Positions 68 through 62,011 of a stretch of DNA of 64,000 bases are shown piece after piece. The stretch comes from Thermodesulfobacteriota bacterium (GTDB lineage Bacteria; Desulfobacterota; BSN033; UBA1163): NCBI GenBank assembly GCA_049513055.1, contig JBEKWN010000009.1, positions 3,789 to 67,788 of the forward strand. The letters are read 5' to 3'. Made by a program: the position numbers and the translations under genes. How positions within the stretch are numbered: position 1 is the first letter of the stretch; the number at the start of each line of letters is the position of its first letter. The notes below the pieces were generated by a model. That model did no database searches. It was not told the DNA's origin and worked only from the letters and a program-made list of their open reading frames with translations.

Positions 68-358
68 ATGATCAACACTTCAAACAGATCCAATAGGAAG
101 ATTGGAAAAAAGAACATAAGGTCTTTTTTAAAATCGATTACTCCGGGAGAACAGGTATGGTTGAGGGATGGCGTGTTGAAACAAATCCAGACAAGGGAGT
201 GGATTTTTAGTAGAGTGGAGAAAGACGGTACAATTTTGATAGTGCTTAAAGGCGGTGATTTTGGTTTGGACGTAAAAGCAGATGATATTGATTGGGAGGC
301 GTATCGGAAATCGAACGAACACGGCGGTCACCCATTTTGGCAATACGTAGATCGTTAA
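68..358 (+). CDS. hypothetical small protein (96 aa)
   Basis: Intact ORF on the same strand as the downstream skp-like gene. No motif recognised. Confidence 0.35.
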   Translation: MINTSNRSNRKIGKKNIRSFLKSITPGEQVWLRDGVLKQIQTREWIFSRVEKDGTILIVLKGGDFGLDVKADDIDWEAYRKSNEHGGHPFWQYVDR

Positions 359-402: not shown

Positions 403-930
403 GTGATGTATAGAAAATTCATTGGAGTTCTCGTTTTCATGATTATAGGAGGATTATTTACAGGAACAGTTTACTCTGCTGATATAAAGATTGGATCGGT
501 TGATATGCAGAAGGCAGTGAATGAATGTAATGCAGGGAAAGAGGCCAAAAAGGTACTCACCCAAGAGGCGGAAAAATTCCAGCGCCTCATCGCTGAGAAG
601 CAGAAAGAACTTCAGGGGGTGAAAGAATCGCTGGAAAAACAGGGTCTGATGCTGAACCCTGAAACGAGGGTAGCAAGAGAAAAGGAGTTACAGGCTAAAG
701 TTAGAGATTTTCAGAGATGGGGGGAGGACCATCAGAATGAGCTCAATCAGAGACGGATTGACATCGAAAGGAACATTTCCAGCGGCCTTATAAAGGTAGC
801 TCAAGAGATTGGGGCAAATGAGGGATACACCCTCATCCTGCAGAAGAACGAGAACATTGTACTCTTTGCTTCCAAGCCTATTGACATTACAGATCAGGTC
901 ATTAAGGCCTATGATGTCCAGAAGAAATAG
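403..930 (+). CDS. skp: periplasmic chaperone, OmpH/Skp family
   Basis: 175 aa. It has an N-terminal signal peptide (VFMIIGGLFTGTVYSA), a long K/E/Q-rich coiled-coil body and the C-terminal YTLILQKN..VLFAS..DITDQVIKAYD pattern typical of Skp/OmpH. Confidence 0.8.
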   Translation: MMYRKFIGVLVFMIIGGLFTGTVYSADIKIGSVDMQKAVNECNAGKEAKKVLTQEAEKFQRLIAEKQKELQGVKESLEKQGLMLNPETRVAREKELQAKVRDFQRWGEDHQNELNQRRIDIERNISSGLIKVAQEIGANEGYTLILQKNENIVLFASKPIDITDQVIKAYDVQKK

Positions 931-1034
931 GACTGATAAAGGTTATAAGGATAAAAGGGGATGGATATTATGGTTAGAAAAATTATGATTCCAGTGTTAG
1001 AATTGACAAAGAGAAAGAAAGGAGATGAGAAGAG

Positions 1035-2307: not shown

Positions 2308-2835
2308 ATGCTGAACCGGCGGCTTTCCGATGACCCCCATCTCAGACAGCGCAAAGCAGTGTGGATCGGCTTGGCCCTTGCGATTGCCCTTGATACCACC
2401 GCACAGTTGTGCTGGAAAGCAGCAACGTTTCATGCCCCTGCTTCTGCAAGCATTTGGCAAACGCTCGTTATCACATTCCGTCAGCCACTGTTTCACGTCA
2501 CCGTACTTCTGTTCATCCTTATGTTTTTCAATTGGATGATAGTGTTATCCAATGCTGACCTCAGTTATGCACAGCCGATAACTGCCTTAAGCTATGTTAC
2601 GGTCAGTGTGGTTGCGGTGGTCTTGCTTGGTGAGGATATTCCTCCGCAGCGTATGATTGGGATCACGATGATCCTGTTTGGTGTGTGGTTTATCAGCAGC
2701 ACGAGTCATCGAACAGTCATCCCCGGTGCGCAATCTCAATCTGCTCAGCAACAGACACAGGATCTACGCCTTTCCAAAAGTAAACAAGTGTATGCGGTAA
2801 TCAAAGCCACTAATGTGATGATTGCCACAGACTGA
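2308..2835 (+). CDS. small DMT/EamA-like membrane protein
   Basis: About 4 hydrophobic helices with a single EamA-type repeat pattern (ADLSYAQPITALSYV...LLGE). The true start is uncertain. Confidence 0.45.
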   Translation: MLNRRLSDDPHLRQRKAVWIGLALAIALDTTAQLCWKAATFHAPASASIWQTLVITFRQPLFHVTVLLFILMFFNWMIVLSNADLSYAQPITALSYVTVSVVAVVLLGEDIPPQRMIGITMILFGVWFISSTSHRTVIPGAQSQSAQQQTQDLRLSKSKQVYAVIKATNVMIATD

Positions 2836-3972: not shown

Positions 3973-5250
3973 ATGAAGGCGATGAAACCGATCAACTATG
4001 GCTGGGTGATTGTTGGAGTGGGCGTTCTCGTCAAGATGACAGGCTTAGGGTTTGGCCGGTTTGCTTATCCCATGCTCATTCCCAATATGAGAGGATCGCT
4101 TGGATTCAACTATATCGAGATGGGACTTTTAAGCGGAGCCATCATGTTGGGTTACCTTCTCTTCTCCCTTATTGGTGGAATATTGGCAACACGGTTCGGT
4201 CCCAAAAGGATTGTGATCATTTCCCTCCTTTGTAGTGCTCTCTCCATGTTCTCCATCAGTAGATTATCCGGCCTCCTTCCTCTTCTCTTCTTCAGCTTCG
4301 CCATGGGAGCAGGGGGTGCAGGGGCTCACATTTCCATGACCACTTTACCCATGGCATGGTTTGGAGAGCGGAGATTGGGCAGGGCCCTTGGCGTTGTGAC
4401 AGGTGGAACAGGCCTCGGCATCATTGTCACGGGTCTTCTGCTTCCCTATCTTCTATTCAATTTGGGTAAAGAGGCGTGGAGACAGTGCTGGCTCCTTCTG
4501 GCCTTGATTACTTTTTTGGTGGTGGTGATCGGATGGATATTATTGAGGGGAAAACCGAACCAGATGTCACTTCTTCCTTCCGGTCCTGATGGAGATGAAA
4601 AATCCATTCTCTCTCAAGACAACAAAAATGGACTCAGCCTTAAGGCAATCTTTATCATCTATTTCATCTTTGGATTTGCTTATAACATCTATGCCACCTA
4701 TTTTGTCGCTTATATGGTCGAGGAGATTCGACTTTCAGAAAAAACTGCAGGAAATATTTGGGCCCTCTTCGGTTGGATGTGTATGGGGAGTGGATTGATT
4801 TGGGGGTTTATTTCTGACCATTTGGGAAGACGAAAGGCCCTGCTCTGGAACAACGGGATCATATCCCTTTCTGTTCTTCTTCCTCTTCTGCTCCATCAGT
4901 CTTTCATCCTCGGCCTTTCTGCCTTTCTTTTTGGAGTGACTTTTTTAGGAACGGTCACTGTTATTGCTGCGGCGGTTGGAGATCAGGTGGTTGAAAAAAG
5001 GGCTTCTGTTTATGGATTGGTCACCCTGATCCATGGCATCGGACAGTTTTTAGGGACGATCTCTGGTGGATATTTAAAAGATTTAACCGGTTCTTTTCAA
5101 TTAACCCTTATTGTTTCCCTGACCGGTTTTCTCCTCTGCATACTCCTGACCTCCATCACCCCCCCACCCTTCCCTCCCCCTCAGAGGGGGGAGGAGGTAG
5201 GTGGGGGTGAGGTTAGAGAGTTTCGTAGAAAGATTTTTTCAAAAATTTAA
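3973..5250 (+). CDS. MFS transporter
   Basis: 425 aa and about 12 TM segments, with a G-rich loop motif (ATRFGPKR) after TM2. The last ~35 codons translate a GC-rich palindrome, so the true C-terminus is uncertain. Confidence 0.75.
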   Translation: MKAMKPINYGWVIVGVGVLVKMTGLGFGRFAYPMLIPNMRGSLGFNYIEMGLLSGAIMLGYLLFSLIGGILATRFGPKRIVIISLLCSALSMFSISRLSGLLPLLFFSFAMGAGGAGAHISMTTLPMAWFGERRLGRALGVVTGGTGLGIIVTGLLLPYLLFNLGKEAWRQCWLLLALITFLVVVIGWILLRGKPNQMSLLPSGPDGDEKSILSQDNKNGLSLKAIFIIYFIFGFAYNIYATYFVAYMVEEIRLSEKTAGNIWALFGWMCMGSGLIWGFISDHLGRRKALLWNNGIISLSVLLPLLLHQSFILGLSAFLFGVTFLGTVTVIAAAVGDQVVEKRASVYGLVTLIHGIGQFLGTISGGYLKDLTGSFQLTLIVSLTGFLLCILLTSITPPPFPPPQRGEEVGGGEVREFRRKIFSKI

Positions 5251-5824
5251 AGGAAGCAACAAATTTGTCAAAGACGTCGAAAGCGGATAGATCGTAAGAC
5301 CCATCCATAGGTCTCCATTGGGTAATATAGAAGCCTACGATCCGGTCACCCCGTTTACCGAAGACCACTTTGGCTCTAACCTTCTCCTTTTTCACTGGGT
5401 CCTTTCCCTCTACCAATACTGCCAGCCCTTCTCCACCAACGACCTGAACCTTTTTTCTGTTTAAAATTTGAAACTGAAGAATCGCATTGAAAAGAAACCT
5501 CTTAAAAAATTCCCTTTCCCTCCCCTCGAACGATGCTGCTGTACACCCAAAAGGATCCTCATCATAAGCAAACGTGGTGACAGAGGGAAAGGGTCCAGGG
5601 TCTGATCTCATAAATCCAAAATTTATATCATTCTCGCCTGCTTCCACCCGTAGTAATTTCCAATCCGGGGAAGGGGGCATAAACTCAAACTCGTCTTCCC
5701 AGACGACCGTTCCCTGAGGAGTCAATCTGTAAGGAACCTTCTTGGAGGTTTGCATCGAGGCACACCCAGAAAGCCAGGCCGCCACCAACACAAAACACAG
5801 AACCGTCAGCAATTTTCTTTTCAT
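5213..5824 (-). CDS. putative lipoprotein
   Basis: Signal peptide with lipobox LSGC. No family recognised. The start overlaps the stop of the upstream peroxiredoxin (ATGA-type coupling at 5821-5824). Confidence 0.5.
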   Translation of the reverse strand: MKRKLLTVLCFVLVAAWLSGCASMQTSKKVPYRLTPQGTVVWEDEFEFMPPSPDWKLLRVEAGENDINFGFMRSDPGPFPSVTTFAYDEDPFGCTAASFEGREREFFKRFLFNAILQFQILNRKKVQVVGGEGLAVLVEGKDPVKKEKVRAKVVFGKRGDRIVGFYITQWRPMDGSYDLSAFDVFDKFVASFKFLKKSFYETL

Positions 5825-7165: not shown

Positions 7166-9628
7166 CTAAAGATCACCTTTCAGGAATGTTTTCACTTCAA
7201 TCTTTTCCCCATCCGTCATCACTGTGATGGCTCCATCTTTATCAGTTCTTAAAATCCTCGAACCCAATTGCAGGTATCTCTTCAATACCTCTGGATGGGG
7301 AAGTCGGCCGATATTCCTTTCACCCACACTGAGAATGGCATAAGTAAGTTTCACCCTTTCCAGGAAAAGCGGGGAACTCGAGGAAGAACTTCCGTGATGG
7401 GGGATTTTTAAAATATCAGCCCTGAGCGGATAACCTTTTCTTAGCATTCGCTCCTCGGCTTCCTTTCCAATATCTCCTGTCAGAAGCACAGAAACATTTT
7501 TAAATCGAAGCTTCATGACCAGTGAGGCATTATTCAGATCCCAGAGATTCCGAACTTTTCTTTGTGTTGCATTCCACACCGGTGGGTTTAGAAAAGAAAT
7601 CTCGACTCCATTGATCATTTGAAAAGGTGTCTCTTCATTCAGAGAGTGGATCTTAATTTTTTTCTCCTCAAGAATTTTTTTCAACTGGAGATAGGGCTCT
7701 GAGTCTGTCTGAAACCCGTTATCCCAGAATTGGCCAATCGAAAATTGGGAAGCAATGAAAATTAAACCTTTCAGATGGTCTGGGTCAGGATGGGTGAGGA
7801 CAAGGGTGTCAACCCTTCGAATCTTCTTTTTCCATAGAAAGGGGGCGATGACATTCTTTCCAATATCGAAACGATCCTCACGAAGGCCTCCTCCATCGAT
7901 CAGCATCCTTTTTCCTTTTGGAAATTCGATGAGGATGGAATCTCCATTTCCTACATCTATAAAAGTTAACCTGAGATCTTTTTGTAATAAATCTTTCAGA
8001 TTCCAAAATGCCAAATCGAAGACGAGAACAACGCAGAGCCCCAAAAAAAGATATCGGGCCATCTTCCGTTTCTTAAGGTGAACTACTAGGAAAAGGAGAA
8101 TGTAGAAAAGGACGATTTCAAAAACGGTTGGGGTTGAGACAAAGAACGAAGCAAACGGTAGAGAGGCAAAGAAGGCCAGTACTCTGAGCAGGATCAGGGT
8201 GATGAAACCATTGATGTTGATCAGGAAGGTAGCTAAGGGAGTGAAGAAGAAAGAAAAAATGGAAGCGGTGAGACTCAAAGGGACGATGAGAAAGCCCACC
8301 CATGGAATGATGAAGAGGTTGGTGAAAAATCCAATGGGGGAGAAACGGTTGAAGTGGAGTGCAACAAAAGGTGCGGTCCCTAAAATGGCCACTCCAGTCA
8401 CGAGGAGGGAGAGCATGATATATTTCAAGATATTCTTCTTCCATGAAGTTTTTAGAAGAAGGGAAATTCCCTCTTGTTTAAACTCTTGAAGGATGCGTGG
8501 GACCAGATAGAGAATGGAAAGGACAGCGAGGAAAGAGAGCTGAAAAGAAACATCGAAAAGGGAAGGAGGTGAGAGGATGAGGATGAGAAAGGCGGCCAGC
8601 GCGAGTGTGTGGAGCAGGTTTCTCTCCCGATTGAGCAAGATGGAGAAGAGGAAGGTGATCACCATGATTGCCGCTCGGATCACGGAGATCCCTCCGCCTG
8701 CGATGAATGCATAGAGAATGATGCAGGGGATCGTCAGGCCAGCCGCCCATTTTCTGACGGAAATGGAGAGAAGAAGAAATTCTGAACGCTTTAAAATCCA
8801 GATCAGCAGAGAGAAAGAAAGGAGAGCAACGATTCCGAATTGATCTCCCGAAATGGCCAGAAGATGAGCTGTCCCGGTAAGAATAAAATATTCCTTTATC
8901 TCTTCTGGAATATCCCCCTGTTCGCCCAATACAAGGGCTTTGAAAATACTAGAAGTGGGAGCATTGACTTCTCGGTTTAGAAAATCCCGGATACGATCCC
9001 GCCAGCTCTCCACTTGGAGAATAATAGGATTTTTAAATCCCTTTCCCAATTTGACCCACCCTTTCTTCTCGGATAAGAATCCAACCGTATGGATTCGTTC
9101 AAAGGCAAGGTGGCGTTCGTAAGAAAACCCGCCTGGATTATGAAATCCACGAGGGGAATGGAGTCTACAAAAAAAACGAAGGCGATCCCCCACTCGAAGC
9201 GAGGGATCCTCCTCTTTAAGGAAGATCAGGAGAAGACCGTCCACAGAGATGTGACGGTTTGAAAGGATGACCTTTTGTGAGCGAATGAGTAATTGGGTTC
9301 TTCCTCGGGAGGTCTCAGGAGGGCGATCGATGATTCCCTCTAATGAAATTCTTTCCAAGCCGGTGAAATGAGAGAGGTGAGAGGGGGAGTATTGTGGATG
9401 GAGATAAAGCTGGATAGAAAAAATTCCGAGAAGGAAGAAAATGGAGAAGGCGATCCAAGAACCCATCTGGATTCTTTTTATTATGAGGAGAAGAGTCCAA
9501 AAACCCAAAAGTATTAGGAGGAGAATCCATCCTTGAGAAAGGAAAGGAAGGTCGAAGTGGCCAAAATAGATACCAATGGTGTAGAAGATCAAGATAGGAA
9601 TGAGAGGAAGGCGAAAGGCTCCACTCAT
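7166..9628 (-). CDS. comEC: DNA internalization-related competence protein ComEC/Rec2
   Basis: 820 aa. It has an N-terminal OB/DUF4131-like region, a polytopic competence domain and a C-terminal metallo-beta-lactamase domain (VLTHPDPDH, HHGS). Confidence 0.9.
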   Translation of the reverse strand: MSGAFRLPLIPILIFYTIGIYFGHFDLPFLSQGWILLLILLGFWTLLLIIKRIQMGSWIAFSIFFLLGIFSIQLYLHPQYSPSHLSHFTGLERISLEGIIDRPPETSRGRTQLLIRSQKVILSNRHISVDGLLLIFLKEEDPSLRVGDRLRFFCRLHSPRGFHNPGGFSYERHLAFERIHTVGFLSEKKGWVKLGKGFKNPIILQVESWRDRIRDFLNREVNAPTSSIFKALVLGEQGDIPEEIKEYFILTGTAHLLAISGDQFGIVALLSFSLLIWILKRSEFLLLSISVRKWAAGLTIPCIILYAFIAGGGISVIRAAIMVITFLFSILLNRERNLLHTLALAAFLILILSPPSLFDVSFQLSFLAVLSILYLVPRILQEFKQEGISLLLKTSWKKNILKYIMLSLLVTGVAILGTAPFVALHFNRFSPIGFFTNLFIIPWVGFLIVPLSLTASIFSFFFTPLATFLININGFITLILLRVLAFFASLPFASFFVSTPTVFEIVLFYILLFLVVHLKKRKMARYLFLGLCVVLVFDLAFWNLKDLLQKDLRLTFIDVGNGDSILIEFPKGKRMLIDGGGLREDRFDIGKNVIAPFLWKKKIRRVDTLVLTHPDPDHLKGLIFIASQFSIGQFWDNGFQTDSEPYLQLKKILEEKKIKIHSLNEETPFQMINGVEISFLNPPVWNATQRKVRNLWDLNNASLVMKLRFKNVSVLLTGDIGKEAEERMLRKGYPLRADILKIPHHGSSSSSSPLFLERVKLTYAILSVGERNIGRLPHPEVLKRYLQLGSRILRTDKDGAITVMTDGEKIEVKTFLKGDL

Positions 9629-18215: not shown

Positions 18216-18291
18216 GGGCCCATAGCTCAGCTGGAAGAGCCACCGGCTCATAACCGGTAGGTCCCTGGTTCGAACCCAGGTGGGCCCACCA
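18216..18291 (+). tRNA. tRNA-Met (anticodon CAT; could alternatively be tRNA-Ile2 if lysidine-modified), CCA encoded
   Basis: The acceptor stem is GGGCCCA/TGGGCCC. It has AGCTCAGCTGG in the D-loop, the anticodon loop CTCATAA, GGTTCGAACCC in the T-arm and a 3' ACCA. Confidence 0.9.
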
Positions 18292-19174: not shown

Positions 19175-19647
19175 AATCCTTGGGGCGAGAAGATCGATTG
19201 ATCATTTATATTGATGGGGCCTCCAGAGGAAATCCAGGAAGGGCAGGGGCGGGGATTTGGATTACGAATGGAGAAGGGAGAAAAATTTCGGAGGTGAGCC
19301 GATATCTCGGCACCAAGACGAATAATGAGGCAGAATATTGGGCCCTTCTTTTAGGACTGAGGGAGGCAAAGCGATTGGGGGGGGAGGCCCTCCAAATCTT
19401 CACGGATTCAGAATTAGTCGAAAGACAAATTAAAGGGGTCTATCGCGTGAAGGATTTAAATTTAAAGGTCCTCCACAAAACAGTGCTCCAGAATTTAAAA
19501 ACATTTTCATCCTTTGAAATCGAATCCATCCCAAGGGAAGGAAATAAAGAAGCAGACCGTTTGGCGAACCAGGCGATCCAGAGGAGGATTTCAAAGGAAA
19601 AAGGAAAGGAGGGGAGTCGAAGGGGAACAGATGGTCGCTCCTCCTGA
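19171..19647 (+). CDS. rnhA: ribonuclease HI
   Basis: IYIDGASRGNPG.AG, TNNEAEY.ALL.GL, IFTDSELV and NKEADRLAN carry the DEDD catalytic residues. The ATG at 19171 overlaps the upstream stop (ATGA). Confidence 0.8.
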   Translation: MKSLGREDRLIIYIDGASRGNPGRAGAGIWITNGEGRKISEVSRYLGTKTNNEAEYWALLLGLREAKRLGGEALQIFTDSELVERQIKGVYRVKDLNLKVLHKTVLQNLKTFSSFEIESIPREGNKEADRLANQAIQRRISKEKGKEGSRRGTDGRSS

Positions 19648-20108
19648 GATCACGCGAAGCGGGAAACCAGGAGGGGAGGAAAGTCCGAGCTCCGCAGGGC
19701 AGGGTGGTCCGTAATACGGACTGTCCCGGAATTCTGCAGGGCAGAATTCCGGGGTAAGGAGAGTGCCACAGAAAACATACCGTCCTGTGAAATAGGCGTA
19801 ACTACCATTTCGTAGGATAAGGGTGAAAAGGTGAGGTAAGAGCTCACCAGTACCCTGAGCGATTGGGGTAGCTAGGTAAACCCCACCTGGAGCAAGACCA
19901 AATAGGTTCCGCTTCCCCCCGCCGCAGGCGGGGGGATAAGAAAAGCCCATTCAAATTTGTTCCGAGGCAATTGCATCGGGACAAAGGCGGGACGGGTGAG
20001 GTCGCTTGAGACCTTGAGCAATCAAGGCCCTAGATAAATGACCATCCTCCCGATTCCCGCTGAAAAGCGGGATCGGGATGACAGAACTCGGCTTATGGTC
20101 CCCTTCGA
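19617..20108 (+). ncRNA. rnpB: RNase P RNA (bacterial type A)
   Basis: Conserved GAGGAAAGTCCGAGCTCC is near the 5' end and ACAGAACTCGGCTTAT is near the 3' end. A P1 helix can form between TCGAAGGGGA (19617-) and TCCCCTTCGA (-20108). The ends are approximate. Confidence 0.85.
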
Positions 20109-20310
20109 AGATCCCCCTTTTTCATTTACTATTCTGAGGCCGGGTAGAATACATTTTTGCTATCGGTCCTAAATTCGAAGCACTCAATTCGAAACAAGCA
20201 CGAATGTTCAAAATACGAATGACCCAAATAAAAAGTTTAGAATTTTGATATTTGAAATTTGAATTTGTTTCGAGCTTCGATATTAGGATTTCGAATTTTA
20301 AATAAACTTT

Positions 20311-23292: not shown

Positions 23293-23754
23293 ATGGCCGA
23301 GAAGCTGATTTGTCAGAACAAAAAAGCTTTCCATAATTACTTTATCGAAGAGACGTACCAGACCGGGGTCTCCCTTCTGGGATCAGAGGTTAAGGCATTG
23401 CGGGACGGAAAGGTCAACCTGGGGGATAGCTATGGGGATATCAAAAGAGGTGAGGTTTTTCTCGTCGATGCTCATATCAGTCCTTATCCCCAAGCAAACC
23501 GGTTGAATCACGATCCTTTAAGGACCCGAAAACTCCTCCTTCATAAGAGGGAGATTAAACGGCTAATCGGTAAGGTGGAACAGAGGGGATATACGCTGAT
23601 TCCGCTCAAGCTCTACTTTGTGAACGGTAAGGTGAAGGTAGATCTGGGTCTCGCAAAGGGGAAGAAGCTTTATGATAAACGTGAGACCCTTAAGAAGAAA
23701 ACCATGGAACGCGAGATGGAAAGGGGGCGAAAAGGGTTCGACGGGGATCGTTGA
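23293..23754 (+). CDS. smpB: SsrA-binding protein SmpB
   Basis: [21 protein letters not shown] and LLLHKREI..L are canonical SmpB sequences. Confidence 0.95.
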
Positions 23755-24079
23755 CGTCAGGGCTGCATACCGAGGTCCCATTGGCTCGTAAAACAAATGG
23801 GATTAAACATAATCGCAAACAACTACGATTATGCCCTGGCTGCCTAAACGCAGCTAGGCGTCCTTCCCTGTCCTCTCCTGTAGGGCGGGACAAGGATGTC
23901 AGAAAAACAGGATAGTTCCTCTCTGACGCCTATAAGAGAGGGGCGAAACTTTATAGGATAGCCTTTCAGGAATCCTGCCTGTGGGAGTCCTGAGGGGCGA
24001 ATTTAAAATACAGGCTATGTATGTAGATGTTCTGTCGGAAGGTTTCCGGACGCGGGTTCGATTCCCGCCGCCTCCACCA
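23723..24079 (+). ncRNA. ssrA: tmRNA (SsrA), tag ANNYDYALAA
   Basis: The 5' GGGGGCG pairs with the 3' CGCCTCC-ACCA and includes the G3:U70 alanine identity pair. GGTTCGACGGGG is near the 5' end. The resume codon is GCA at 23815, followed by GCA AAC AAC TAC GAT TAT GCC CTG GCT GCC TAA. The T-arm GGTTCGATTCCCGCC is at the 3' end. Confidence 0.9.
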
Positions 24080-44161: not shown

Positions 44162-44234
<73 letters not shown>

Positions 44235-44260
44235 CATCATGAATAATTAGAAAATTTATA

Positions 44261-50439: not shown

Positions 50440-50695
50440 CCCGCTTGCACCCTTCACAGTCTTATCCTCGAAGACCTTTCCGTGAAGAATATCCAGGCAG
50501 GTTTTCTGACTCTCCCGACCTTAACTCGCCTTCCCATCCTGAGTGTGTCCAAGGACAGTGGCTTTTTTGTTAAGGCACTTATCCCGCAATTTTAAAAAAT
50601 GCGGGATCAGGACTACAGCGGCGGGTCCGTCCCCGACTTTCTCCGTCTAAACGAAGATCACGGGGTTCCCTTTTCCTGGGTATCACCGTTGGAAT
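50440..50695 (-). promoter_or_regulatory. cobalamin (B12) riboswitch
   Basis: The minus strand shows GGTGATACCCAGGAAAAGGGAACCCCGTGA, then CCCGCCGCTGTAG, then the B12 box AGTCAGAAAACCTGCC (50496-50511). The boundaries are approximate. Confidence 0.8.
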
Positions 50696-50806
50696 AATTT
50701 CTTTTAACAAATTTTAAAATGGTCTGTCAAGTTTTTTCCTTTGACTTCTCTAACCTTCCGATCCTTCTTTCTACCTCAACCATTCAAAAAAAGAGGGATA
50801 GTTTGG

Positions 50807-55528: not shown

Positions 55529-56455
55529 TCAAGATGGATTCAAGAATTTTTGAGTCTCTTTCAGGGTGGGGATTCCTTTTCTTCCGCCAAGTTCTCGGCA
55601 TTTAAGGGCAGCCACTGCATTGGCAAACCTTAAAATCTCTGCCACCTCCCAATTTTGAAGGAGGCCATATATAAATCCTCCGTGGAAGACATCGCCTGCG
55701 CCAGTGGTATCCACGGCCTTTACTTTGAATCCTTCAGCATAGATAAATTCCCCATTGACCATGGCCATGGCACCTTCGTGCCCCAGAGTGGTACACAGAA
55801 ATCCAGGGGTATACTTTTGGAGTTCGAGAAGAGCCTTTTCTCGATCTGAAATTCCGGTGTAGAGCATAGGGAATCGTGAAGAGGTGATGACGAAATCAAT
55901 TTCTTTAATCAACTCAGAAGTGAGAGGTTCTACTTTGTCGAGGTCAATGACAATTGGAATTCCTTCCTCCTTTGCCCACCTGGCACATTGAATAGCGGCG
56001 TGGATGTCGTGACCATCTAAGTGGAGGAGTTTTCCAGAGCAGACCTCCTCTTTCCGAAGTTCTCCTTCGCGGTACATCAATCGTTCGTCTCGATTCCAAA
56101 TGATCGTCCGTTCTCCAGAGGGACCCTCCACAATGATCATGGCAAACTGGTTTGTGGCATTGGGCTCGATCGTCACCGAAGAGACATCCACTCCCTCCTG
56201 GTGAATGGAATGGAGAGAGAATTGGCCCAGCTTATCCTCTCCGACTTTTCCAATATATTTCGTTTTCACACCCCATCGACTCAGGGCCACCATGGCTGTG
56301 GCCACCTGGCCTCCTCCCTGTTTGGAAAACCGGAGCATCTCCATTTTTGAATTCGGAGTAGGGAATTCTGGAACCACACTGAGGAAGTCCACAGAGTTGA
56401 GGCCTATCCCCACCACATCAAAAGGTTTGTCTTGAAGTGGAAGATTAAATCGCAT
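55529..56455 (-). CDS. PfkB family carbohydrate kinase (ribokinase-like)
   Basis: GGG..N.A (GGGQVATAM) and the C-terminal DTTGAGDVFHGGF anion-hole/catalytic motif. Confidence 0.85.
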   Translation of the reverse strand: MRFNLPLQDKPFDVVGIGLNSVDFLSVVPEFPTPNSKMEMLRFSKQGGGQVATAMVALSRWGVKTKYIGKVGEDKLGQFSLHSIHQEGVDVSSVTIEPNATNQFAMIIVEGPSGERTIIWNRDERLMYREGELRKEEVCSGKLLHLDGHDIHAAIQCARWAKEEGIPIVIDLDKVEPLTSELIKEIDFVITSSRFPMLYTGISDREKALLELQKYTPGFLCTTLGHEGAMAMVNGEFIYAEGFKVKAVDTTGAGDVFHGGFIYGLLQNWEVAEILRFANAVAALKCRELGGRKGIPTLKETQKFLNPS

Positions 56456-56509: not shown

Positions 56510-56538
56510 TTGACTTTTTTGTCACAGATTAATATATT
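56510..56538 (+). promoter_or_regulatory. sigma70-type promoter facing the cassette array
   Basis: TTGACT (56510-56515), a 17-nt spacer, then TATATT (56533-56538). It lies 53 nt upstream of a solo GTTAGGG core at 56591. Confidence 0.45.
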
Positions 56539-56817
56539 CCAAACAAAATAGAGGCCATCCGTCAATATCTTTCAACCCTTTAGCCATGTAGTTAGGGTGG
56601 ACATATGGTCTGAAGATGAATGGATACCCCATTTCTGAAAAGGAATGGGTTTTTTTGTCTCATCAGTCTCGTTAGAGAAAAGGCTCCAAAGTTCCCAACA
56701 AACTTTCTAACGGGGCTTGCCATGGGGGTGTACCTCTCAACCAGTTCGGATGTGAGCGAGTTAGCCGCTTATTGCAAGTATTTTTGCCAGAACCAAAGAA
56801 AAGCATACAGAGACCGA

Positions 56818-57867
56818 ATGACATATTGCTTGGGTTGGAAAAGTCAAAATAGTGTGTTTATAGTTGCTGACACTGCATTAACAACTGAAGCATATAAGCC
56901 AACCGGTCCTTTCGTATCAAGCTTTGGGGAGGTTAATTATAGCAGCAAAGATACTTATGTTAGAGAAGCCTTACTAAAAATATGCGTTGTTGGCAAGATA
57001 ATCATCGGCTTTGCCGGGAATGTGAACACTGCGTTTGAGATAATTGCAGTGTTTAAACAGTTAATCTCATCAAATTCAAGTGTACATGAAGTGCTTGAGA
57101 AAGCAATTCGAAGTTGTGGTCCATATTCCAAGAAAAATGATGTCGAATTAATCGTGGGGTATGTTGATAAGAACGGTCCAAGGCTAATTAGTTACAACCA
57201 CGATGAAGAAAGAAGCATTCATGAGCATGATCAGTTTGTTCAAGTCGGCAGTATTGCCTCATACTATCCTGCTTTGTCGGAAGCTACGATAAAAATGTTT
57301 CTAAAAGGAAAATTACCAGATGAAAATATGTTAGCAGCTATTACAGCTATTCTGCAGAATTACGGAATATTGGACCGATTAATGAAAATGAAAGTAGGCG
57401 GTGTGTTCTTTGGAATCTCAGTCAACGCAACCGGTGTATCTTGGCAAGAAGACACATCTTACTTTTTGTATCCCCCAGATCTCAGAAGCTTGCAGCACAT
57501 CTCAGTTGTGGCTAGAGATAATGTGCTTTCGGTTTCATCATCGTTAAGTGGAGACAAAAGGGTATTTATGAATACGATAAACACAACTAACCCCGAGAAA
57601 TGGCAAGCCAGATGGATTCCCAGGCTAAAGAGGAAATTTAACTCTGGACAATCCATTTTTTACACGTTTCTTAGCAAAAGAGACAGACTAATAACGGTAA
57701 TTAAAGCACCCAATCCTCTGTCTAATAAATATTTCAAAATACATGCAGATGGCATGGGAAAGTTCGATTTATTCTTCTCACCAGAATTAATGGCAATGTT
57801 AAAAAACCCAAATGTCGTAGAAAAGGGAATTTCATTGCCTTTTAGATTTAATTGGATAAGTGCCTAA
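56818..57867 (+). CDS. proteasome beta-subunit/Anbu-like Ntn hydrolase with C-terminal extension
   Basis: From the ATG at 56818 the product starts MTYCLGWKSQNSVFIVADTALT...IIIGFAGNVNTAFE. This parallels the MTYC...LVF.SDSRT...AGNLATTQ N-terminus of bacterial Anbu/proteasome-type proteases, where Thr2 is the nucleophile. About 100 extra C-terminal residues follow. The track ORF starts at 56620. Confidence 0.5.
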   Translation: MTYCLGWKSQNSVFIVADTALTTEAYKPTGPFVSSFGEVNYSSKDTYVREALLKICVVGKIIIGFAGNVNTAFEIIAVFKQLISSNSSVHEVLEKAIRSCGPYSKKNDVELIVGYVDKNGPRLISYNHDEERSIHEHDQFVQVGSIASYYPALSEATIKMFLKGKLPDENMLAAITAILQNYGILDRLMKMKVGGVFFGISVNATGVSWQEDTSYFLYPPDLRSLQHISVVARDNVLSVSSSLSGDKRVFMNTINTTNPEKWQARWIPRLKRKFNSGQSIFYTFLSKRDRLITVIKAPNPLSNKYFKIHADGMGKFDLFFSPELMAMLKNPNVVEKGISLPFRFNWISA

Positions 57868-57920
57868 AAAAAACAGAACAATTAGCACCAAAGGAATGTT
57901 CCGCTATGTGGTTTGCAGCG

Positions 57921-57989
57921 GTGGACAACGAAGGCACAAACGGACATGATTAAACTTGATAGCTTCATCTGTGCCGCAGACGTTATAGG
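57921..57989 (+). repeat. attC-like site 1 (69 bp)
   Basis: GGACAAC-gaa-GGCACAAAC ... TCTGTGCC-gcagac-GTTATAG. It is homologous in layout and length to site 3. Confidence 0.5.
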
Positions 57990-58016
57990 TCATCGGTAAC
58001 CATGACTGGAGGAATT

Positions 58017-58571
58017 ATGGAAAATGAATACGAGATCTTCATGGGCGCTCTATTGAAGGCAACTGCTCTGATAGCACCTGAGTTTTTTGATTTGCAGGTT
58101 GCCAGCACTGACGCAACAATTTATAGAGAAAGAGTGTATTGTTACGAGTTGTATCATCAATTAAGACAAACATTGCCCATTGGCTTTCCATTTACATTAC
58201 AGGGCGAGATCGATAAACGGAACCACCCGATTATTTCTAAAGCATGTGGGGCTATCAAGCCCGATCTCTTGGTACACAGACCGGGTGATATGGAAAACAG
58301 CAATCTTGTTGTCGTTGAGGTTAAGTCTGTTACGAATGTCAGCCAACTTAAAAAAGACTTCAAAACATTACGATGTATGACTTCGCTTGAAAATGGCTAC
58401 TTCAGAGGGATATCAGTATTATTTGGCCAAAATAACGATGATCCGTACAATAAAGCAGCTCGACTTTATAAAAAACATTGCGCGGATGCTACAGAGAGAA
58501 TCCATTTATTCTTTCACAAGCTTCCTAGGAATCCAATAGAACGATATATCGAGGAGCAGCAAACACCATAG
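58017..58571 (+). CDS. PD-(D/E)xK-motif protein (putative nuclease), hypothetical
   Basis: IKPDLLVH...SNLVVVEVK fits the PD...(D/E)xK pattern after a helical N-terminus. The ATG at 58017 follows GGAGGA (the track start is 58002). Confidence 0.4.
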   Translation: MENEYEIFMGALLKATALIAPEFFDLQVASTDATIYRERVYCYELYHQLRQTLPIGFPFTLQGEIDKRNHPIISKACGAIKPDLLVHRPGDMENSNLVVVEVKSVTNVSQLKKDFKTLRCMTSLENGYFRGISVLFGQNNDDPYNKAARLYKKHCADATERIHLFFHKLPRNPIERYIEEQQTP

Positions 58572-58633
58572 GGTTCAAGAGGCAAAATGAGGCCGCTGAC
58601 CACGCATAACAAGGAAATGAAGGTAGGGGTGGG

Positions 58634-58730
58634 GCCTTAACACGGGACAGTTTGCCCACAACCGCAGATAACAGAGGCCAAAAGATTTGATCCAAATGCT
58701 ATCGCACTTCTTTAGCCTTAAACGTTAAAC
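58634..58730 (+). repeat. attC-like site 2 (weak, ~97 bp)
   Basis: GCCTTAAC-acg-GGACAG... begins like site 3, and GTTAAAC (an exact GTTRRRY match) sits at 58724. I could not draw the inner L''/L' pairing convincingly. Confidence 0.3.
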
Positions 58731-58744
58731 GGACTGGAGATTAG

Positions 58745-59473
58745 ATGAACAATTTAGAGACAAAATCTAAAGCAACACCTTACAGAGGTCAAATAAATCC
58801 TTTTCAAATTTCTGCTGGGATTCAAATAGTCAAGAAAAATGCAAAGCGCCTTATGGAGGATGCAAAAATTCTTTTCGAAGCAAATAGATTTCCAACAGCG
58901 TGTTCTATCGGCATACTAGCTATTGAAGAGATTGGCAAACTTCCTATTCTGCGACGCATGGCAATTGCTGAAAATACAGAACATTGGAAAATTTGTTGGC
59001 GTGATTTTTCAGATCACCTACAAAAAAGCCAACATTGGATTATTCCTTTTCTAGTCAAGAATGCGCCATCTTTTGAAGAGTTCTCAGATCAATTCTATCA
59101 AGGTCGAGATGCTGACCTAATGAATTCACTTAAACAGCTTGGGTTTTATGCGGGATGTTACGGCCGCGCTCATTGGGCAGACCCGAAAAACATTGTTGAG
59201 AAGGAACAAGCCTCGTTGGTAATACATTCAGCAAATGTTCTTCTTGCTGGAAGTCAACCTTCAGAGTTAGATGTGCCAAGTGCTCTAAATGCTTGGGCAA
59301 ATCATATGAAAGGATGTTTTTCATGCGATCCTGGAATAGCAAACAATGGAGTAGTCGAATTTCTTAAAAAAGTGAAACCAGAAAAGACAGATCGTGACGA
59401 CGGTGGTATTTCTCCAAAAGTGGCATTTGAGTTTATGAGCACAGTTATTTACATAAGCAACGAGAATTTTTGA
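58745..59473 (+). CDS. AbiV-family abortive-infection-like protein
   Basis: The N-terminal helix pair NAKRLMEDAKILFEANRFPTACSIGILAIEEIGK is the pattern I associate with the AbiV family (..dA..L...g.y..A..l...a.EE.gK). This was recalled from memory and not searched. Confidence 0.5.
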   Translation: MNNLETKSKATPYRGQINPFQISAGIQIVKKNAKRLMEDAKILFEANRFPTACSIGILAIEEIGKLPILRRMAIAENTEHWKICWRDFSDHLQKSQHWIIPFLVKNAPSFEEFSDQFYQGRDADLMNSLKQLGFYAGCYGRAHWADPKNIVEKEQASLVIHSANVLLAGSQPSELDVPSALNAWANHMKGCFSCDPGIANNGVVEFLKKVKPEKTDRDDGGISPKVAFEFMSTVIYISNENF

Positions 59474-59485
59474 AATAGCCAGTTC

Positions 59486-59554
59486 GCCTAACAACGGCAC
59501 AAACTTGGGCAACCTAGAAACCTCTCGGCTTCGTCTGTGCCGCACATGTCAGGT
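59486..59554 (+). repeat. attC-like site 3 (69 bp)
   Basis: GCCTAAC (RYYYAAC)-aac-GGCACAAAC ... GTCTGTGCC-gcacat-GTCAGGT. Confidence 0.55.
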
Positions 59555-59592
59555 TTCATTGCAGGCAAGGTGTAAAGAAAGAGCTTTAGATT

Positions 59593-60384
59593 ATGAAAAA
59601 TGATTATGATCCAGCATTAGTTGAGAAAGCTAAAAAAGTAGCTGCCGGGCCTCTTGGCAAAGAGATGACAAAATTTCCCTTGAGATTTGCAACCTCAATA
59701 CTTTTTGGTCAAAAGCCATATGGTACCTCCCCCAATTCAGATTTTAATAACGCGACTGCAACTCTTGTTGATTTTGGCCAAGGTCCAATGGCAATAACTT
59801 GTTTTCACGTTTTAGAAGCGTATAGGAAAAAACTAAGCGAAGGTAGTCAAATCATATTTCAAATTGGTAACCTAAAAATAGACCCTTTAAATAAAATCAT
59901 TGATGAATGTGAAAGATTAGATCTTGTCACAATAGATTTAAAGGATGAAAATACTCAAAAGATAAGCGATGGTGGTGAGGTATCTTCATATTTCTTTTCT
60001 CCTGTTTCATGGCCGCCTCAGGGTATCAAATGCGGTGAATTTGTTGCCTTTGGAGGATTTCCTGGTCGATGGAGGCAGCACTTATCACAGAAAAAAGTAA
60101 TGTTTGACTCATTTGGTAGCGGGGCATGCGCTGTTGCATCGGTAAGAGAAGATACCATTGTTTGCCAATTTGAAAGAGAATATTGGGTTTACTCATTTAA
60201 TTTACATCCTGGCGAAGAGTTACATGATATTAGAGGTCTCAGCGGAGCTCCAGTTTTTATTTGGAGAGATTTGAATTTCGAACTAATCGGTATCATTTGC
60301 CAATTTTCGGAAGCATATGATTTGATGTATGTCCCACCTTCAAAGTTTATCCGCGTAAACGGAACTATCATTAAGGATTTTTAG
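59593..60384 (+). CDS. trypsin/chymotrypsin-fold serine protease, no signal peptide
   Basis: The catalytic triad appears in canonical order: ITCFHV (His), DLVTIDL (Asp) and GLSGAPVF (GxSGxP Ser). Confidence 0.65.
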   Translation: MKNDYDPALVEKAKKVAAGPLGKEMTKFPLRFATSILFGQKPYGTSPNSDFNNATATLVDFGQGPMAITCFHVLEAYRKKLSEGSQIIFQIGNLKIDPLNKIIDECERLDLVTIDLKDENTQKISDGGEVSSYFFSPVSWPPQGIKCGEFVAFGGFPGRWRQHLSQKKVMFDSFGSGACAVASVREDTIVCQFEREYWVYSFNLHPGEELHDIRGLSGAPVFIWRDLNFELIGIICQFSEAYDLMYVPPSKFIRVNGTIIKDF

Positions 60385-60419
60385 GTGAAACACTTATTTT
60401 ATGGTTGCCTGCAACAGAC

Positions 60420-60485
60420 GCCTAACATACTGCAAAAAACTTACGTCCGAACTTTTTGGCTTTTTTTGTGTCAGAAACGTTAGCT
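60420..60485 (+). repeat. attC-like site 4 (66 bp)
   Basis: GCCTAAC-ata-CTGCAAAAAAC ... TTTTTTTGTGTCAG-aaac-GTTAGCT. Confidence 0.5.
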
Positions 60486-60604
60486 AAAATGCCGCTTCGC
60501 GACGCTGCCTATTCATGCCACAACCTTCACATCTACTCCAATGGGTTGACGAATCGGTCGAGCATAGTATAAAATATTAAATCATATAAAGAGGTAAACG
60601 AGAC

Positions 60605-62011
60605 TTGGAAGGTATTGCCACCATCATCCTTGCAGCAGGAAAAGGGACCCGGATGAAGTCAGAACTGGTGAAAGTCCTTCATCCGATTCTGGGACTTCCC
60701 ATGCTCTCCTATCCCATTGAACTTTCCTTGAACGGGATCAAAGCCGAAAAGACAATTGTGGTCGTGGGTCACCAGGCGGACCGCATTCAGGAAATGTTTA
60801 ACGACTTTAAGATTGACTTTGCCCTCCAGAAGGAACAACTGGGGACGGGTCATGCCGTCTTACAAGCCATTCCATTTCTTCAGTCATTCAGTGGTACGGT
60901 TTTGATCCTCTGTGGGGATGTGCCTTTGGTGAAGGTGGAAACCCTGCGCTCTTTTATCGATACTTATAAGGAAAATAAATCCACCCTCTCTGTATTGACG
61001 GCAGTCGTTGAGGAGCCCTTTGGGTACGGTCGTATCCTTCGAAATTCGGAAGGTTGGTTGGAAAAGATTTTGGAAGAAAAAGATGCCTCAGAAAAAGAAA
61101 GGATGATTCGTGAGATCAATACCGGGATCTTCTGTGTGAAGGCTCCCTTTTTAATGGGAGGTTTAAGAGAGATTGGAAAAGAGAATGCCCAGGGTGAATA
61201 TTATCTAACCGACCTGGTCGAGATTGCAAAGAAGAAAGGTTTGAGGTGTTCGGCTCATATCGTGGCGGATCCAGTCGAAGTGATGGGGATCAATACGCGG
61301 GTGGATCTTGCCATGGCCAATGAAAAACTCAGACAGGAAAAGTTGAAAGATCTGATGCTTTCTGGTGTGACCATTGTCGACCCCAAAACCACTTATGTCG
61401 ATCGAGCCGTTGAAGTGGGAGAAGACACCCTCCTCTATCCAAATTGTCATCTGCAAGGAAGGACGAAAATTGGTGAACGGTGTATCATCGAACCCAACTC
61501 AAAGGTTTCAGATTCTATTATCGGCAATGATGTGACCATTCGCTCAAACTCTGTGATTACGGAAAGCAAAATTGAAGAGGGAGCCTCCATCGGTCCCTTT
61601 GCCCATCTGAGGCCGTTGAGCGAGGTGAAGACCAAGGCAAAGATCGGAAACTTCGTGGAGGTGAAGAAGTCGGTCATCGGTAAAGGTTCAAAAGCCAACC
61701 ATCTGGCCTATATTGGCGATTCCTTTCTCGGAGAAGACGTCAACATTGGCGCTGGGACCATTACATGCAACTACGATGGATTCGAGAAACACCAGACGAT
61801 CATCGGCAATCGGGTCTTTGTGGGATCGAATGTGGAGTTGGTGGCTCCGGTCAAGGTGGGAAACGATTCCTCGATCGGTGCAGGCACCACGGTCACAAAA
61901 GATGTTCCTGAAGGGGCACTGGCGATCAGCCGGGTGAAGCAGAAGAACATCAAGAGGTGGAATAAAAAGATAGAGCACCGCCGTAAAAAATCGAGAGAAA
62001 AGAAGGATTGA
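60605..62011 (+). CDS. glmU: bifunctional UDP-N-acetylglucosamine diphosphorylase / glucosamine-1-phosphate N-acetyltransferase
   Basis: ILAAGKGTRMKS, a left-handed beta-helix hexapeptide C-terminus and a TTG start. Confidence 0.95.
   Translation: MEGIATIILAAGKGTRMKSELVKVLHPILGLPMLSYPIELSLNGIKAEKTIVVVGHQADRIQEMFNDFKIDFALQKEQLGTGHAVLQAIPFLQSFSGTVLILCGDVPLVKVETLRSFIDTYKENKSTLSVLTAVVEEPFGYGRILRNSEGWLEKILEEKDASEKERMIREINTGIFCVKAPFLMGGLREIGKENAQGEYYLTDLVEIAKKKGLRCSAHIVADPVEVMGINTRVDLAMANEKLRQEKLKDLMLSGVTIVDPKTTYVDRAVEVGEDTLLYPNCHLQGRTKIGERCIIEPNSKVSDSIIGNDVTIRSNSVITESKIEEGASIGPFAHLRPLSEVKTKAKIGNFVEVKKSVIGKGSKANHLAYIGDSFLGEDVNIGAGTITCNYDGFEKHQTIIGNRVFVGSNVELVAPVKVGNDSSIGAGTTVTKDVPEGALAISRVKQKNIKRWNKKIEHRRKKSREKKD

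Follow-up and report, generated by a model that had tools for sequence, protein, structure and literature searches.

What kind of element separates pfkB from glmU in an uncultured member of the Thermodesulfobacteriota, and how did its four genes come to stand there in a row? The question concerns a stretch of 64,000 nucleotides (assembly GCA_049513055.1, contig JBEKWN010000009.1, positions 3,789 to 67,788 of the forward strand; hereafter the window), in which an inserted segment at about 56.5–60.5 kb holds four co-oriented plus-strand open reading frames (ORFs), each followed by a short imperfect palindrome. Integrase-less cassette arrays are common and poorly understood, and integron cassettes have lately been recognised as a reservoir of phage-defence genes. 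An initial annotation of this DNA had proposed an array of the type known as CALIN, in which attC sites stand clustered and an integron integrase is missing. Our analysis indicates that the segment is probably the integrase-less remnant of an integron-type gene-capture platform in a peat Syntrophaceae/Thermodesulfobacteriota bacterium, and that this remnant now looks fixed and is probably decaying. The CALIN reading is upheld by a site model built from other organisms, by recurrence of the ORF2 and ORF4 units elsewhere, by empty junctions in relatives and by the lack of an integrase.

The segment lies between pfkB (55529–56455, minus strand) and glmU (60605–62011, plus strand), both assigned by Pfam, and its GC content (0.37–0.43) is lower than that of these two genes (0.45–0.50), in line with the AT-richness noted initially. 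Each cassette consists of a single ORF and then a 65–69-nt imperfect palindrome with RYYYAAC-type and GTT-type ends, and the cassettes measure 1223, 742, 824 and 931 bp in order. The cores listed in the initial annotation are all present at their positions (GGACAAC at 57923; GCCTAAC at 59486 and 60420; GTTATAG at 57982; GTTAAAC at 58724; GTCAGGT at 59548; GTTAGCT at 60479; GTTAGGG at 56591). Of the unit lengths given there, 742–1391 bp, the minimum holds, but the first unit is 1223 bp rather than 1391 bp because the core at the array head is at 56759. The right edge of the inserted segment is the conserved glmU promoter (GGGTTGAC-N17-CATAGTATAAAA, 60544–60575, plus strand), which was located by a promoter scan, lies outside the array and is also found at the empty junctions of L022, L036, L038 and others (L numbers designate loci outside the window). 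A CALIN comprises at least two attC sites on one strand within 4 kb, with no integrase or integrase pseudogene (PF00589 plus intI_Cterm) nearby. Here four co-oriented sites spaced by 743–934 bp were found with a family-specific model, which is not that of IntegronFinder, and tblastn over the 64 kb with IntI1 (E≤10) and with the recombinase of contig L158 (E≤1e-3) gave no integrase match, as the initial annotation had stated. Rfam searches at gathering thresholds and at E≤10 returned nothing in the segment and no match resembling an attC family.

The sites, designated S1–S4, were scored with a covariance model (R2) made from 41 metagenomic sites of the same family, none of which came from the window. 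R2 gave exactly four window matches at E≤10 (128 kb, counting both strands), all on the plus strand and one in the gap after each ORF, which is beyond what chance would give. S1 occupies 57923–57988 (66 nt; R'' GGACAAC, R' GTTATAG; 48.4 bits, E 1.4e-11), S2 occupies 58666–58730 (65 nt; R'' AGATAAC, R' GTTAAAC; 18.8 bits, E 0.012), S3 occupies 59486–59554 (69 nt; R'' GCCTAAC, R' GTCAGGT; 54 bits, E 3e-13) and S4, at the end of the array, occupies 60420–60485 (66 nt; R'' GCCTAAC, R' GTTAGCT; 18.6 bits, E 0.013). The initial annotation had described palindromes of 66–97 bp with attC architecture; the inverted cores are indeed there, but the range is 65–69 nt, and S1, said to be 69 bp, is one of the 66-nt sites. 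Direct-repeat analysis showed that S1, S3 and S4 have the 22-nt 3' arm GCTTCnTCTGTGCCGCAnAnGT in common, and the right inner repeat of S1 reads ATCTGTGCC; no further copy of the S1–S4 motifs was found within the 64 kb. S3 alone folds significantly better than shuffled sequences (bottom strand, -14.2 kcal/mol, z -2.5). S2 is 78% identical to the attC that follows the ORF4 homologue in L059 and is of the same type as the first attC of L158, and the R'' of S4 together with its upstream flank (TTGCCTGCAAC..GAC) is common to L059, L055 and L158.

Similar sites are numerous outside the window. A metagenome scan with the pattern CACAAAN{15,45}TCTGTGYCRCASAYGT returned 103 contigs, and when family membership was defined by the arms only, 55 distinct metagenomic sites of 65–75 nt were obtained. 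At positions that the search pattern did not impose, TAAC was present in 47/55 and GTT in 54/55 of these sites, compared with 2/25 and 5/25 among chance matches. The spacers are also regular, with 3 nt (ANC) on the 5' side in nearly all sites and 6 nt (mostly GCACAC) on the 3' side, which gives the family consensus RNNTAAC-ANC-GGCACAAACGGAGGACTCAAAACCTGATGGCTTCGTCTGTGCC-GCACAC-GTTAKNN. Pairing of the R box across the family occurs in 98–100% of sites at the inner four positions and in 44–68% at the outer three; the weak outer pairing is what exchange at G|TT predicts, with the distal R' belonging to the neighbouring cassette. Co-oriented arrays of family sites spaced by 0.6–1.9 kb were detected with R2 in L144, L141, L126, L096 and L078. 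Inverted cores of the RYYYAAC/GTTRRRY kind thus characterize the family, and of the four window sites, S2 and S4 have both TAAC and GTT, while S1 (GGACAAC) and S3 (GTCAGGT) deviate. On sequence grounds S1–S4 belong to a widespread family of 65–75-nt attC-like sites with conserved TAAC/GTT cores.

Homologues of the cassette genes in other loci indicate where the units begin and that they have moved. The ORF2 homologue of L042 (66% identity) stands in a co-oriented array and is flanked by clear attC-type sites, and that of L043 (83% identity) has different neighbours. In a three-way alignment of the window, L043 and L042, similarity begins exactly at (G/A)ACGTTA, the R' core of S1 and of the upstream sites, which marks the boundary of cassette 2. 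The ORF4 homologue of L059 (86% identity) is the third cassette of an array and its unit starts at an R' GTTAGGC that aligns with GTCAGGT in the window, and BLAST homology with the ORF4 homologue of L061 runs from window position 59548, the first base of the S3 R' core. Units bounded at G|TT were accordingly found for ORF2 and ORF4. Further ORF4 homologues adjoin a type ISP restriction–modification (R-M) enzyme (L054) and an SNF2/NOV_C helicase (L057), and ORF1 homologues too have unrelated surroundings: in L165 the neighbour is a type I R-M system, and in L167/L168 the gene heads a canonical cassette array by an IntI remnant. The occurrence of ORF1, ORF2 and ORF4 homologues in such unrelated contexts indicates that these units moved independently, which argues against an operon-type system.

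The pfkB–glmU neighbourhood was compared in 17 relatives from Syntrophaceae/Thermodesulfobacteriota metagenome-assembled genomes, with PfkB identities of 72–88%. The junction was empty (110–480 bp, with the conserved glmU promoter) in nine of the 17, and in the other eight it held unrelated inserts of 1–6 kb with toxin-antitoxin, glmM/nagB-like or MinD-like genes. No homologue of ORF1–4 was found at the junction in any of the 17, so that the segment represents an insertion at a variable junction and not conserved synteny; the synteny with matching GC that the initial annotation named as contrary to its reading is absent on both counts, as GC also differs from the flanks. Family sites are also present at this junction in two of the relatives (L023 6811–6876 and L018 8505–8570, both minus strand) with different cargo, mainly toxin-antitoxin pairs, which in L018 are in reverse orientation. 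In this clade the pfkB–glmU junction seems to have taken up cassettes repeatedly. At the otherwise empty junctions of L016 and L026, two or three copies of the motif TACTCCAnnGGGTTGAC(CCCGTGGAATAGAC) overlap the glmU promoter, and may represent a promoter duplication or a small repeat element. Variation within the population was surveyed in 23 metagenome contigs, mostly from peat, read for each of PfkB and AbiV (the product of ORF3) and encoding the identical protein. All contigs that reach far enough had one and the same gene order, with no alternative arrangement of the cassettes among them; where DNA was compared, 5.3 kb proved 100% identical in three contigs taken from different samples, as did the 3.1 kb that a fourth covers. 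L008, L010 and similar contigs, considered as cassette variants from their 349- and 184-aa gene calls, proved to be 100% identical DNA with differing start calls.

The head of the array contains a promoter-like sequence, a leader and part of an attI-like element. The TTGACT-17-TATATT sequence reported initially is present at 56510–56538 (plus strand; consensus scan, 10/12 matches) and presumably acts as a promoter; L116 has a TTGACT -35 hexamer at the equivalent place and a different -10 region. It is followed at 56546–56659 (plus strand) by a putative leader or small RNA of about 114 nt, recognised by its conservation and by the consensus fold of three copies. It folds into a long hairpin with imperfect pairing, and the terminator scan placed an intrinsic terminator (stem 56628–56649 plus T-run) at its end. 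This leader is about 82% identical to copies in L023/L116 (another species, in which the pfkB–glmU junction holds a different array) and in L103, where it stands upstream of yet another array; the copies lie at about 4786–4912 (minus strand) in L116 and about 150–275 (plus strand) in L103. It has no Rfam match at E≤10. The leader could be an attenuator or riboswitch-like gate on cassette transcription, or an independent small RNA.

The GTTAGGG at 56591, which had been taken for a solo core at an attI position, falls inside this leader, where the other two copies read TATAAGG and CATAGGG. It was rejected as a recombination site on account of these leader copies and of a match elsewhere to R3, a sequence model of six attI-like elements. 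The sole significant window match to R3 is at 56726–56765 (plus strand; 19 bits, E 5.5e-5, model positions 45–84 of 85) and ends in the core GTTAGCC (56759–56765), so that cassette 1 begins after G56759 and runs from 56760 to 57982. Other array heads have an attI-like element of about 95 nt in which TATCCGAA/TTCGGATA inverted repeats surround a CCAAWTT motif and TGAACGA|GTTAG forms the end; in the window, TTCGGATGTGAGCGAGTTAGCC matches that end. The 12-mer TGARCGAGTTAG is also found at the array heads of L059, L103 and L152. Elements of this kind head arrays in L103, L134, L144, L152 (twice; about 7860–7950 and 9310–9400, minus strand) and L158 (about 2310–2400, minus strand), and variants occur in L059, L126 and L088, those of L126 and L088 having other repeat sequences in the same layout. 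The window copy at 56726–56765 is read as a degenerate, attI-like right half-site.

The products of the four cassettes differ in how well they can be assigned. ORF3 (cassette 3; 58745–59473, plus strand; 242 aa) is an AbiV-family HEPN abortive-infection protein according to Pfam (HEPN_AbiV, PF18728; 1.2e-31, 110.4 bits with a cut-off of 27.1), TIGRFAM (TIGR04498; 8e-29, 100.8 bits with a cut-off of 27) and PADLOC (AbiV, 1.6e-4). ORF2 (cassette 2; plus strand, 58017–58571; 184 aa) has 1507 homologues and is predicted to have a PD-(D/E)xK nuclease fold, as its family alignment shows an invariant P82-D83 ... E101-x-K103 motif and its AlphaFold model, with a predicted local distance difference test (pLDDT) score of 91.7, gave as top Foldseek matches the type IIS restriction endonuclease PaqCI (6.7e-5), XPF/Hef and EcoO109I; the start at 58017 is the most likely one from homologue lengths. 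ORF4 (cassette 4; plus strand, 59593–60384; 263 aa) is a putative trypsin-like serine protease from its trypsin-type motifs and from the PF13365 (Trypsin_2) domain in seven of its homologues, and it has a weak LmuA-like PADLOC match (1.3e-9). ORF1 (cassette 1; plus strand, 56818–57867; 349 aa) most likely starts at 56818, given homologue lengths of 346–347 aa, and its family contains only 10 proteins among 5.8 billion clustered proteins. These have an invariant N-terminal MTY(C/I)(L/V)GWK (MTYCLGWK in ORF1) and several invariant Asp, Lys, Ser and Gly positions; from the conserved Thr2 and weak HslV matches (E 0.1–0.9) ORF1 is suspected to be an N-terminal-nucleophile (HslV/proteasome-like) hydrolase, its AlphaFold model (pLDDT 43) being too poor for a structure search. 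Sequence searches of the PDB and of PHROGs were uninformative for ORF1, ORF2 and ORF4.

Site geometry was compared with that of class 1 attCs taken from plasmids (qacF, aadB, VIM-2, aadA2, arr-3, dfrA27, aacA4, IMP-1, aac(6')-IIc, dfrA1, aac(3)-Ia, dfrA12 and gcuF). Like class 1 attCs such as those of aadA2, aacA4 and VIM-2, the family sites fall in the 57–141-nt length range, are imperfect palindromes with inverted RYYYAAC/GTTRRRY ends, and have their crossover at G|TT with the distal R' bases coming from the next cassette. The class 1 layout is R''(7), 5 nt, 3 bp and one extra base before the stem, then 3 bp, 5–6 nt and R'(7) after it, and in its fold the R box of 7 bp is followed by an internal loop (about 5x4 to about 6x6 nt), then by 3 bp, by a G that bulges from the R''-L'' arm, and by a stem. 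The family has spacers of 3 + 6 nt in contrast to the canonical 5 + 5–6 nt, and in the fold of its consensus (z -4.9) the R box of 8 bp is separated from a continuous 13-bp stem by a 3-nt bulge that lies on one side, in the R' arm. In the VchIntIA-VCR structure the IntI insertion reportedly contacts attC features that the S1–S4 family lacks. S1–S4 were also considered as attCs of the opposite strand, which would account for extra bases on the "wrong" arm and for GTTAGGC as a perfect minus-strand R'; this was rejected because the ORF2 and ORF4 homology breakpoints fall at plus-strand R' cores and the whole family has the same geometry. In the array of L168 that holds an ORF1 homologue (about 830–980, minus strand, and 5540–5600, plus strand) there is an IntI C-terminal remnant and an attC nearly identical in its arms to a class 1 aadA-type attC (GCCTAACAACTCATTCGAGCCGAC...GGCTTAATTAGGGCGTTGGAT), which shows that the same cassette gene families occur with canonical and with non-canonical sites.

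Tyrosine-recombinase genes or their remnants were found at the heads of related arrays outside the window, in L158 (2433–3218, minus strand), L096 (4304–5050, minus strand), L126 (10949–11284, minus strand), L059 (2–253, plus strand) and L144 (about 7737–7880, minus strand). The longest of these, in L158, is a partial, co-oriented recombinase of 261 aa; behind it come the attI-like element, one cassette and two sites, the first of S2 type and the second of S1/S3 type. It matches PF13495 and PF00589 (7e-42), and its catalytic domain has 162 aa compared with 201 aa in IntI1, with a gap at about IntI1 188–232 in place of the IntI-specific insertion and a TIGR02249 score of 203.8, below the cut-off of 265. 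A catalytic domain with the insertion near patch III, which marks membership of IntI, is thus not what L158 encodes, and Cury et al. (2016, PMC4889954), for whom this insertion defines IntI, regard recombinases that occur near attC sites but lack it as not IntI. Degraded related ORFs with a common N-terminal motif occur in L059, L126, L144, L096, L164 and L088; the two of these ORFs that were tested scored the motif as HARP (PF07443), L096 with 8.8e-7 and L126 with 2.3e-3, the latter below threshold, and several degraded copies carry one or two such HARP-like domains. Short ORFs in L059 and L126 fuse the N-terminal motif to the C-terminal box II. Arrays of family sites are also found beside short IntI C-terminal remnants in L114/L148 (57.6% identity to IntI1, TIGR02249 8e-26), and an IntI-like remnant is present in L167/L168, in the array with the ORF1 homologue. 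The recombinase fragment of L059 could not be separated by score into IntI or Xer, as both gave E values of about 1e-10.

Taken together, these results are consistent with a history in which each cassette would have been captured separately, a tyrosine recombinase having joined the folded single-stranded cassette site to the platform at G|TT. The recombinase would since have been lost from the locus or may be encoded elsewhere, and the array would now be fixed and decaying, its genes kept as a small anti-phage island that might be expressed by transcription reading through the leader terminator or by means of internal promoters. Decay is probable since S1 reads CAAC and S3 reads GTC at near-invariant positions (TAAC and GTT in the family counts above) and S2 and S4, which keep both cores, score only about 19 bits with R2. 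The array looks like a fixed remnant since no structural variation was seen across samples and only half of the attI-like site is left. Beside these sites there are two R''-like remnants, ACAGAAC at 57874–57880 just past the ORF1 stop, homologous to the start of a site in L165, and GCATAAC at 58605–58611 just past the ORF2 stop, homologous to the R'' of an L042 site. Each has a complete family site 50–60 nt further on, which suggests that the present S1 and S2 took the place of older cassette sites or became fused to them.

Several observations weigh against this interpretation. In the family alignment, base pairs covary no more than they do in shuffled controls, because the stems are nearly invariant, partly through the way in which the sites were retrieved. 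The check for conserved extrahelical bases in bottom-strand folds, which the initial annotation had proposed, gave none in S3 or in the family consensus, and both also lack the unpaired central spacer, whereas class 1 attCs show the two features under the same folding. A proxy model made from ten class 1 attCs from plasmids (R1) gave S4 9.3 bits (E 5.5) and nothing for S1–S3. R1 is too narrow, however, as it also misses the genuine attCs of IMP-1, arr-3 and dfrA1 and the obvious attCs of L042, and leaves the family as a whole undetected, so that its result on the window says little either way. The evidence for independent movement comes from the ORF1, ORF2 and ORF4 units, and the ORF3 unit is not among them. 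Finally, the claim that all four products are of defence type holds for ORF3, which is AbiV above curated cut-offs, but ORF1, ORF2 and ORF4 have no curated defence-family match and are defence-like by fold or by neighbourhood; a defence role is predicted from family membership for ORF3 and is plausible for the other three.

The strongest competing interpretation concerns the kind of platform from which the remnant derives. A distinct integron-like system, in which a co-oriented Xer-like recombinase with N-terminal HARP-like domains acts on its own TATCCGAA/TTCGGATA-repeat attI and on hairpins without extrahelical bases, is a possibility that we hold to be somewhat less likely than not. It accords with the missing insertion in the L158 recombinase, with the HARP match in the L096 ORF and the same N-terminal motif in L059, L126, L164 and L088, with the order of co-oriented recombinase gene or remnant, then attI-like element, in L158 and L144, with the half of that element retained in the window, and with a site geometry that lacks what the IntI insertion is said to contact; no link between HARP domains and integrons was found in the literature searched. 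Yet there is a single long copy of the recombinase, itself without its N-terminus, all others are degraded, classical IntI C-terminal remnants also accompany family sites in L114/L148 and, within a further array, in L167/L168, and recombinases of this type are placed outside IntI by Cury et al. (PMC4889954). That the array and its site family of about 55 members represent an undescribed class, with a HARP-Xer-like recombinase free of the IntI insertion, a repeat-rich attI of about 95 nt and 66-nt hairpins without extrahelical bases, is a little more doubtful still. In such a system the HARP-like domains possibly bind single-strand/duplex junctions, and a conserved, terminated leader RNA precedes the platform in the window and in two other contigs.

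Continued activity of the array, with cassettes excised or reshuffled in trans by a recombinase encoded elsewhere in the genome, appears unlikely. Half of CALINs do occur in genomes that encode IntI elsewhere (PMC4889954), two of the four sites have intact cores, and L023 and L018 hold different cassettes at the same junction, but the cores of S1 and S3 are altered at near-invariant positions, the attI-like element is reduced to half, and the three contigs from different samples are identical over 5.3 kb with no variant cassette order. Far less credible is a single multi-gene defence operon with palindromes serving as terminators or RNA-processing sites, which the initial annotation had offered as its alternative and which is by now largely refuted. 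In its favour are the common orientation and tight packing of the genes and the presence of AbiV among them; against this, the ORF1, ORF2 and ORF4 homologues occur singly in unrelated neighbourhoods and never together, the palindromes have conserved recombination-type cores and recur in arrays with unrelated genes, and S1–S4 are absent from the matches of the intrinsic-terminator scan (G+C-rich stem plus T-run), whose sole plus-strand match is the leader stem. Equally improbable are dispersed repeats of the repetitive extragenic palindrome (REP), bacterial interspersed mosaic element (BIME) or miniature inverted-repeat transposable element (MITE) kind. The sites are indeed imperfect palindromes of short length that turn up in many metagenome contigs, but the many scattered copies expected of REP/BIME-type dispersal, which the initial annotation had also considered, are not seen in the 64 kb, where the only four R2 matches all lie within the array; elsewhere the sites are co-oriented at cassette-length spacing and headed by recombinase/attI-like modules, and homology between loci breaks at the G|TT core. 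In pdif modules, genes are flanked by 28-bp double-stranded 11-6-11 dif-like sites in alternating orientation. The sites described here are 65–75-nt hairpins in one orientation, and do not correspond to such XerC/D dif-type sites.

Among known systems, the integron remnant proposed here is closest to the CALINs described in 2016 (PMC4889954), which likewise have at least two co-oriented sites within 4 kb, no integrase nearby and one-ORF cassettes mostly of unknown function. Their sites are also partly degenerate, which that study suggests to be a step towards stabilising captured genes. Unlike typical CALINs, the window retains an attI-like half-site and a leader RNA, its site geometry is non-canonical, and related arrays are headed by a non-IntI recombinase. 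The Treponema integrases mentioned in the same paper resemble L158, L144, L126 and L059 in having the recombinase gene or remnant co-oriented with the cassettes; they are IntI with the insertion, in contrast to the L158 type, which lacks it and whose related ORFs are HARP-like, and the window itself has no recombinase. Phage-defence cassettes of integrons (bioRxiv 10.1101/2024.07.02.601719) are similarly small and single-gene, with AbiV and nuclease and protease types represented in the window; the array studied here differs in being chromosomal and integrase-less, in an anaerobic member of the Thermodesulfobacteriota, with defence predicted from sequence. Cassette insertion outside att sites (bioRxiv 10.1101/2022.09.11.507474) would offer a route to a chromosomal junction without a resident integrase, but the attI-like half-site and the leader common to other arrays point to a degraded platform rather than to direct cassette insertion. 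In function the element is of a known kind, but its site structure and, probably, its cognate recombinase set it apart as a variant.

The locus provides a clean natural example, in an uncultured anaerobe, of four single-gene cassettes fixed in a core-genome junction while their sites appear to decay. Standard definitions of integrons leave out the recombinase with which its site family is found in repeated linkage, and if this linkage is functional, current integron finders would miss a class of gene-capture elements and the structural rules of cassette-site recognition would be broader than thought. Defence screens could cheaply take in the three uncharacterised products as candidates, especially that of ORF1 with its very rare family.

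Elsewhere in the window, RNase P RNA (19619–20110), tmRNA (23723–24079), two tRNAs (18216–18288 and 44163–44235) and a cobalamin riboswitch (50479–50707), the last upstream of TonB-dependent receptor/cobalamin genes, were identified, and these features indicate that the window belongs to the core chromosome.

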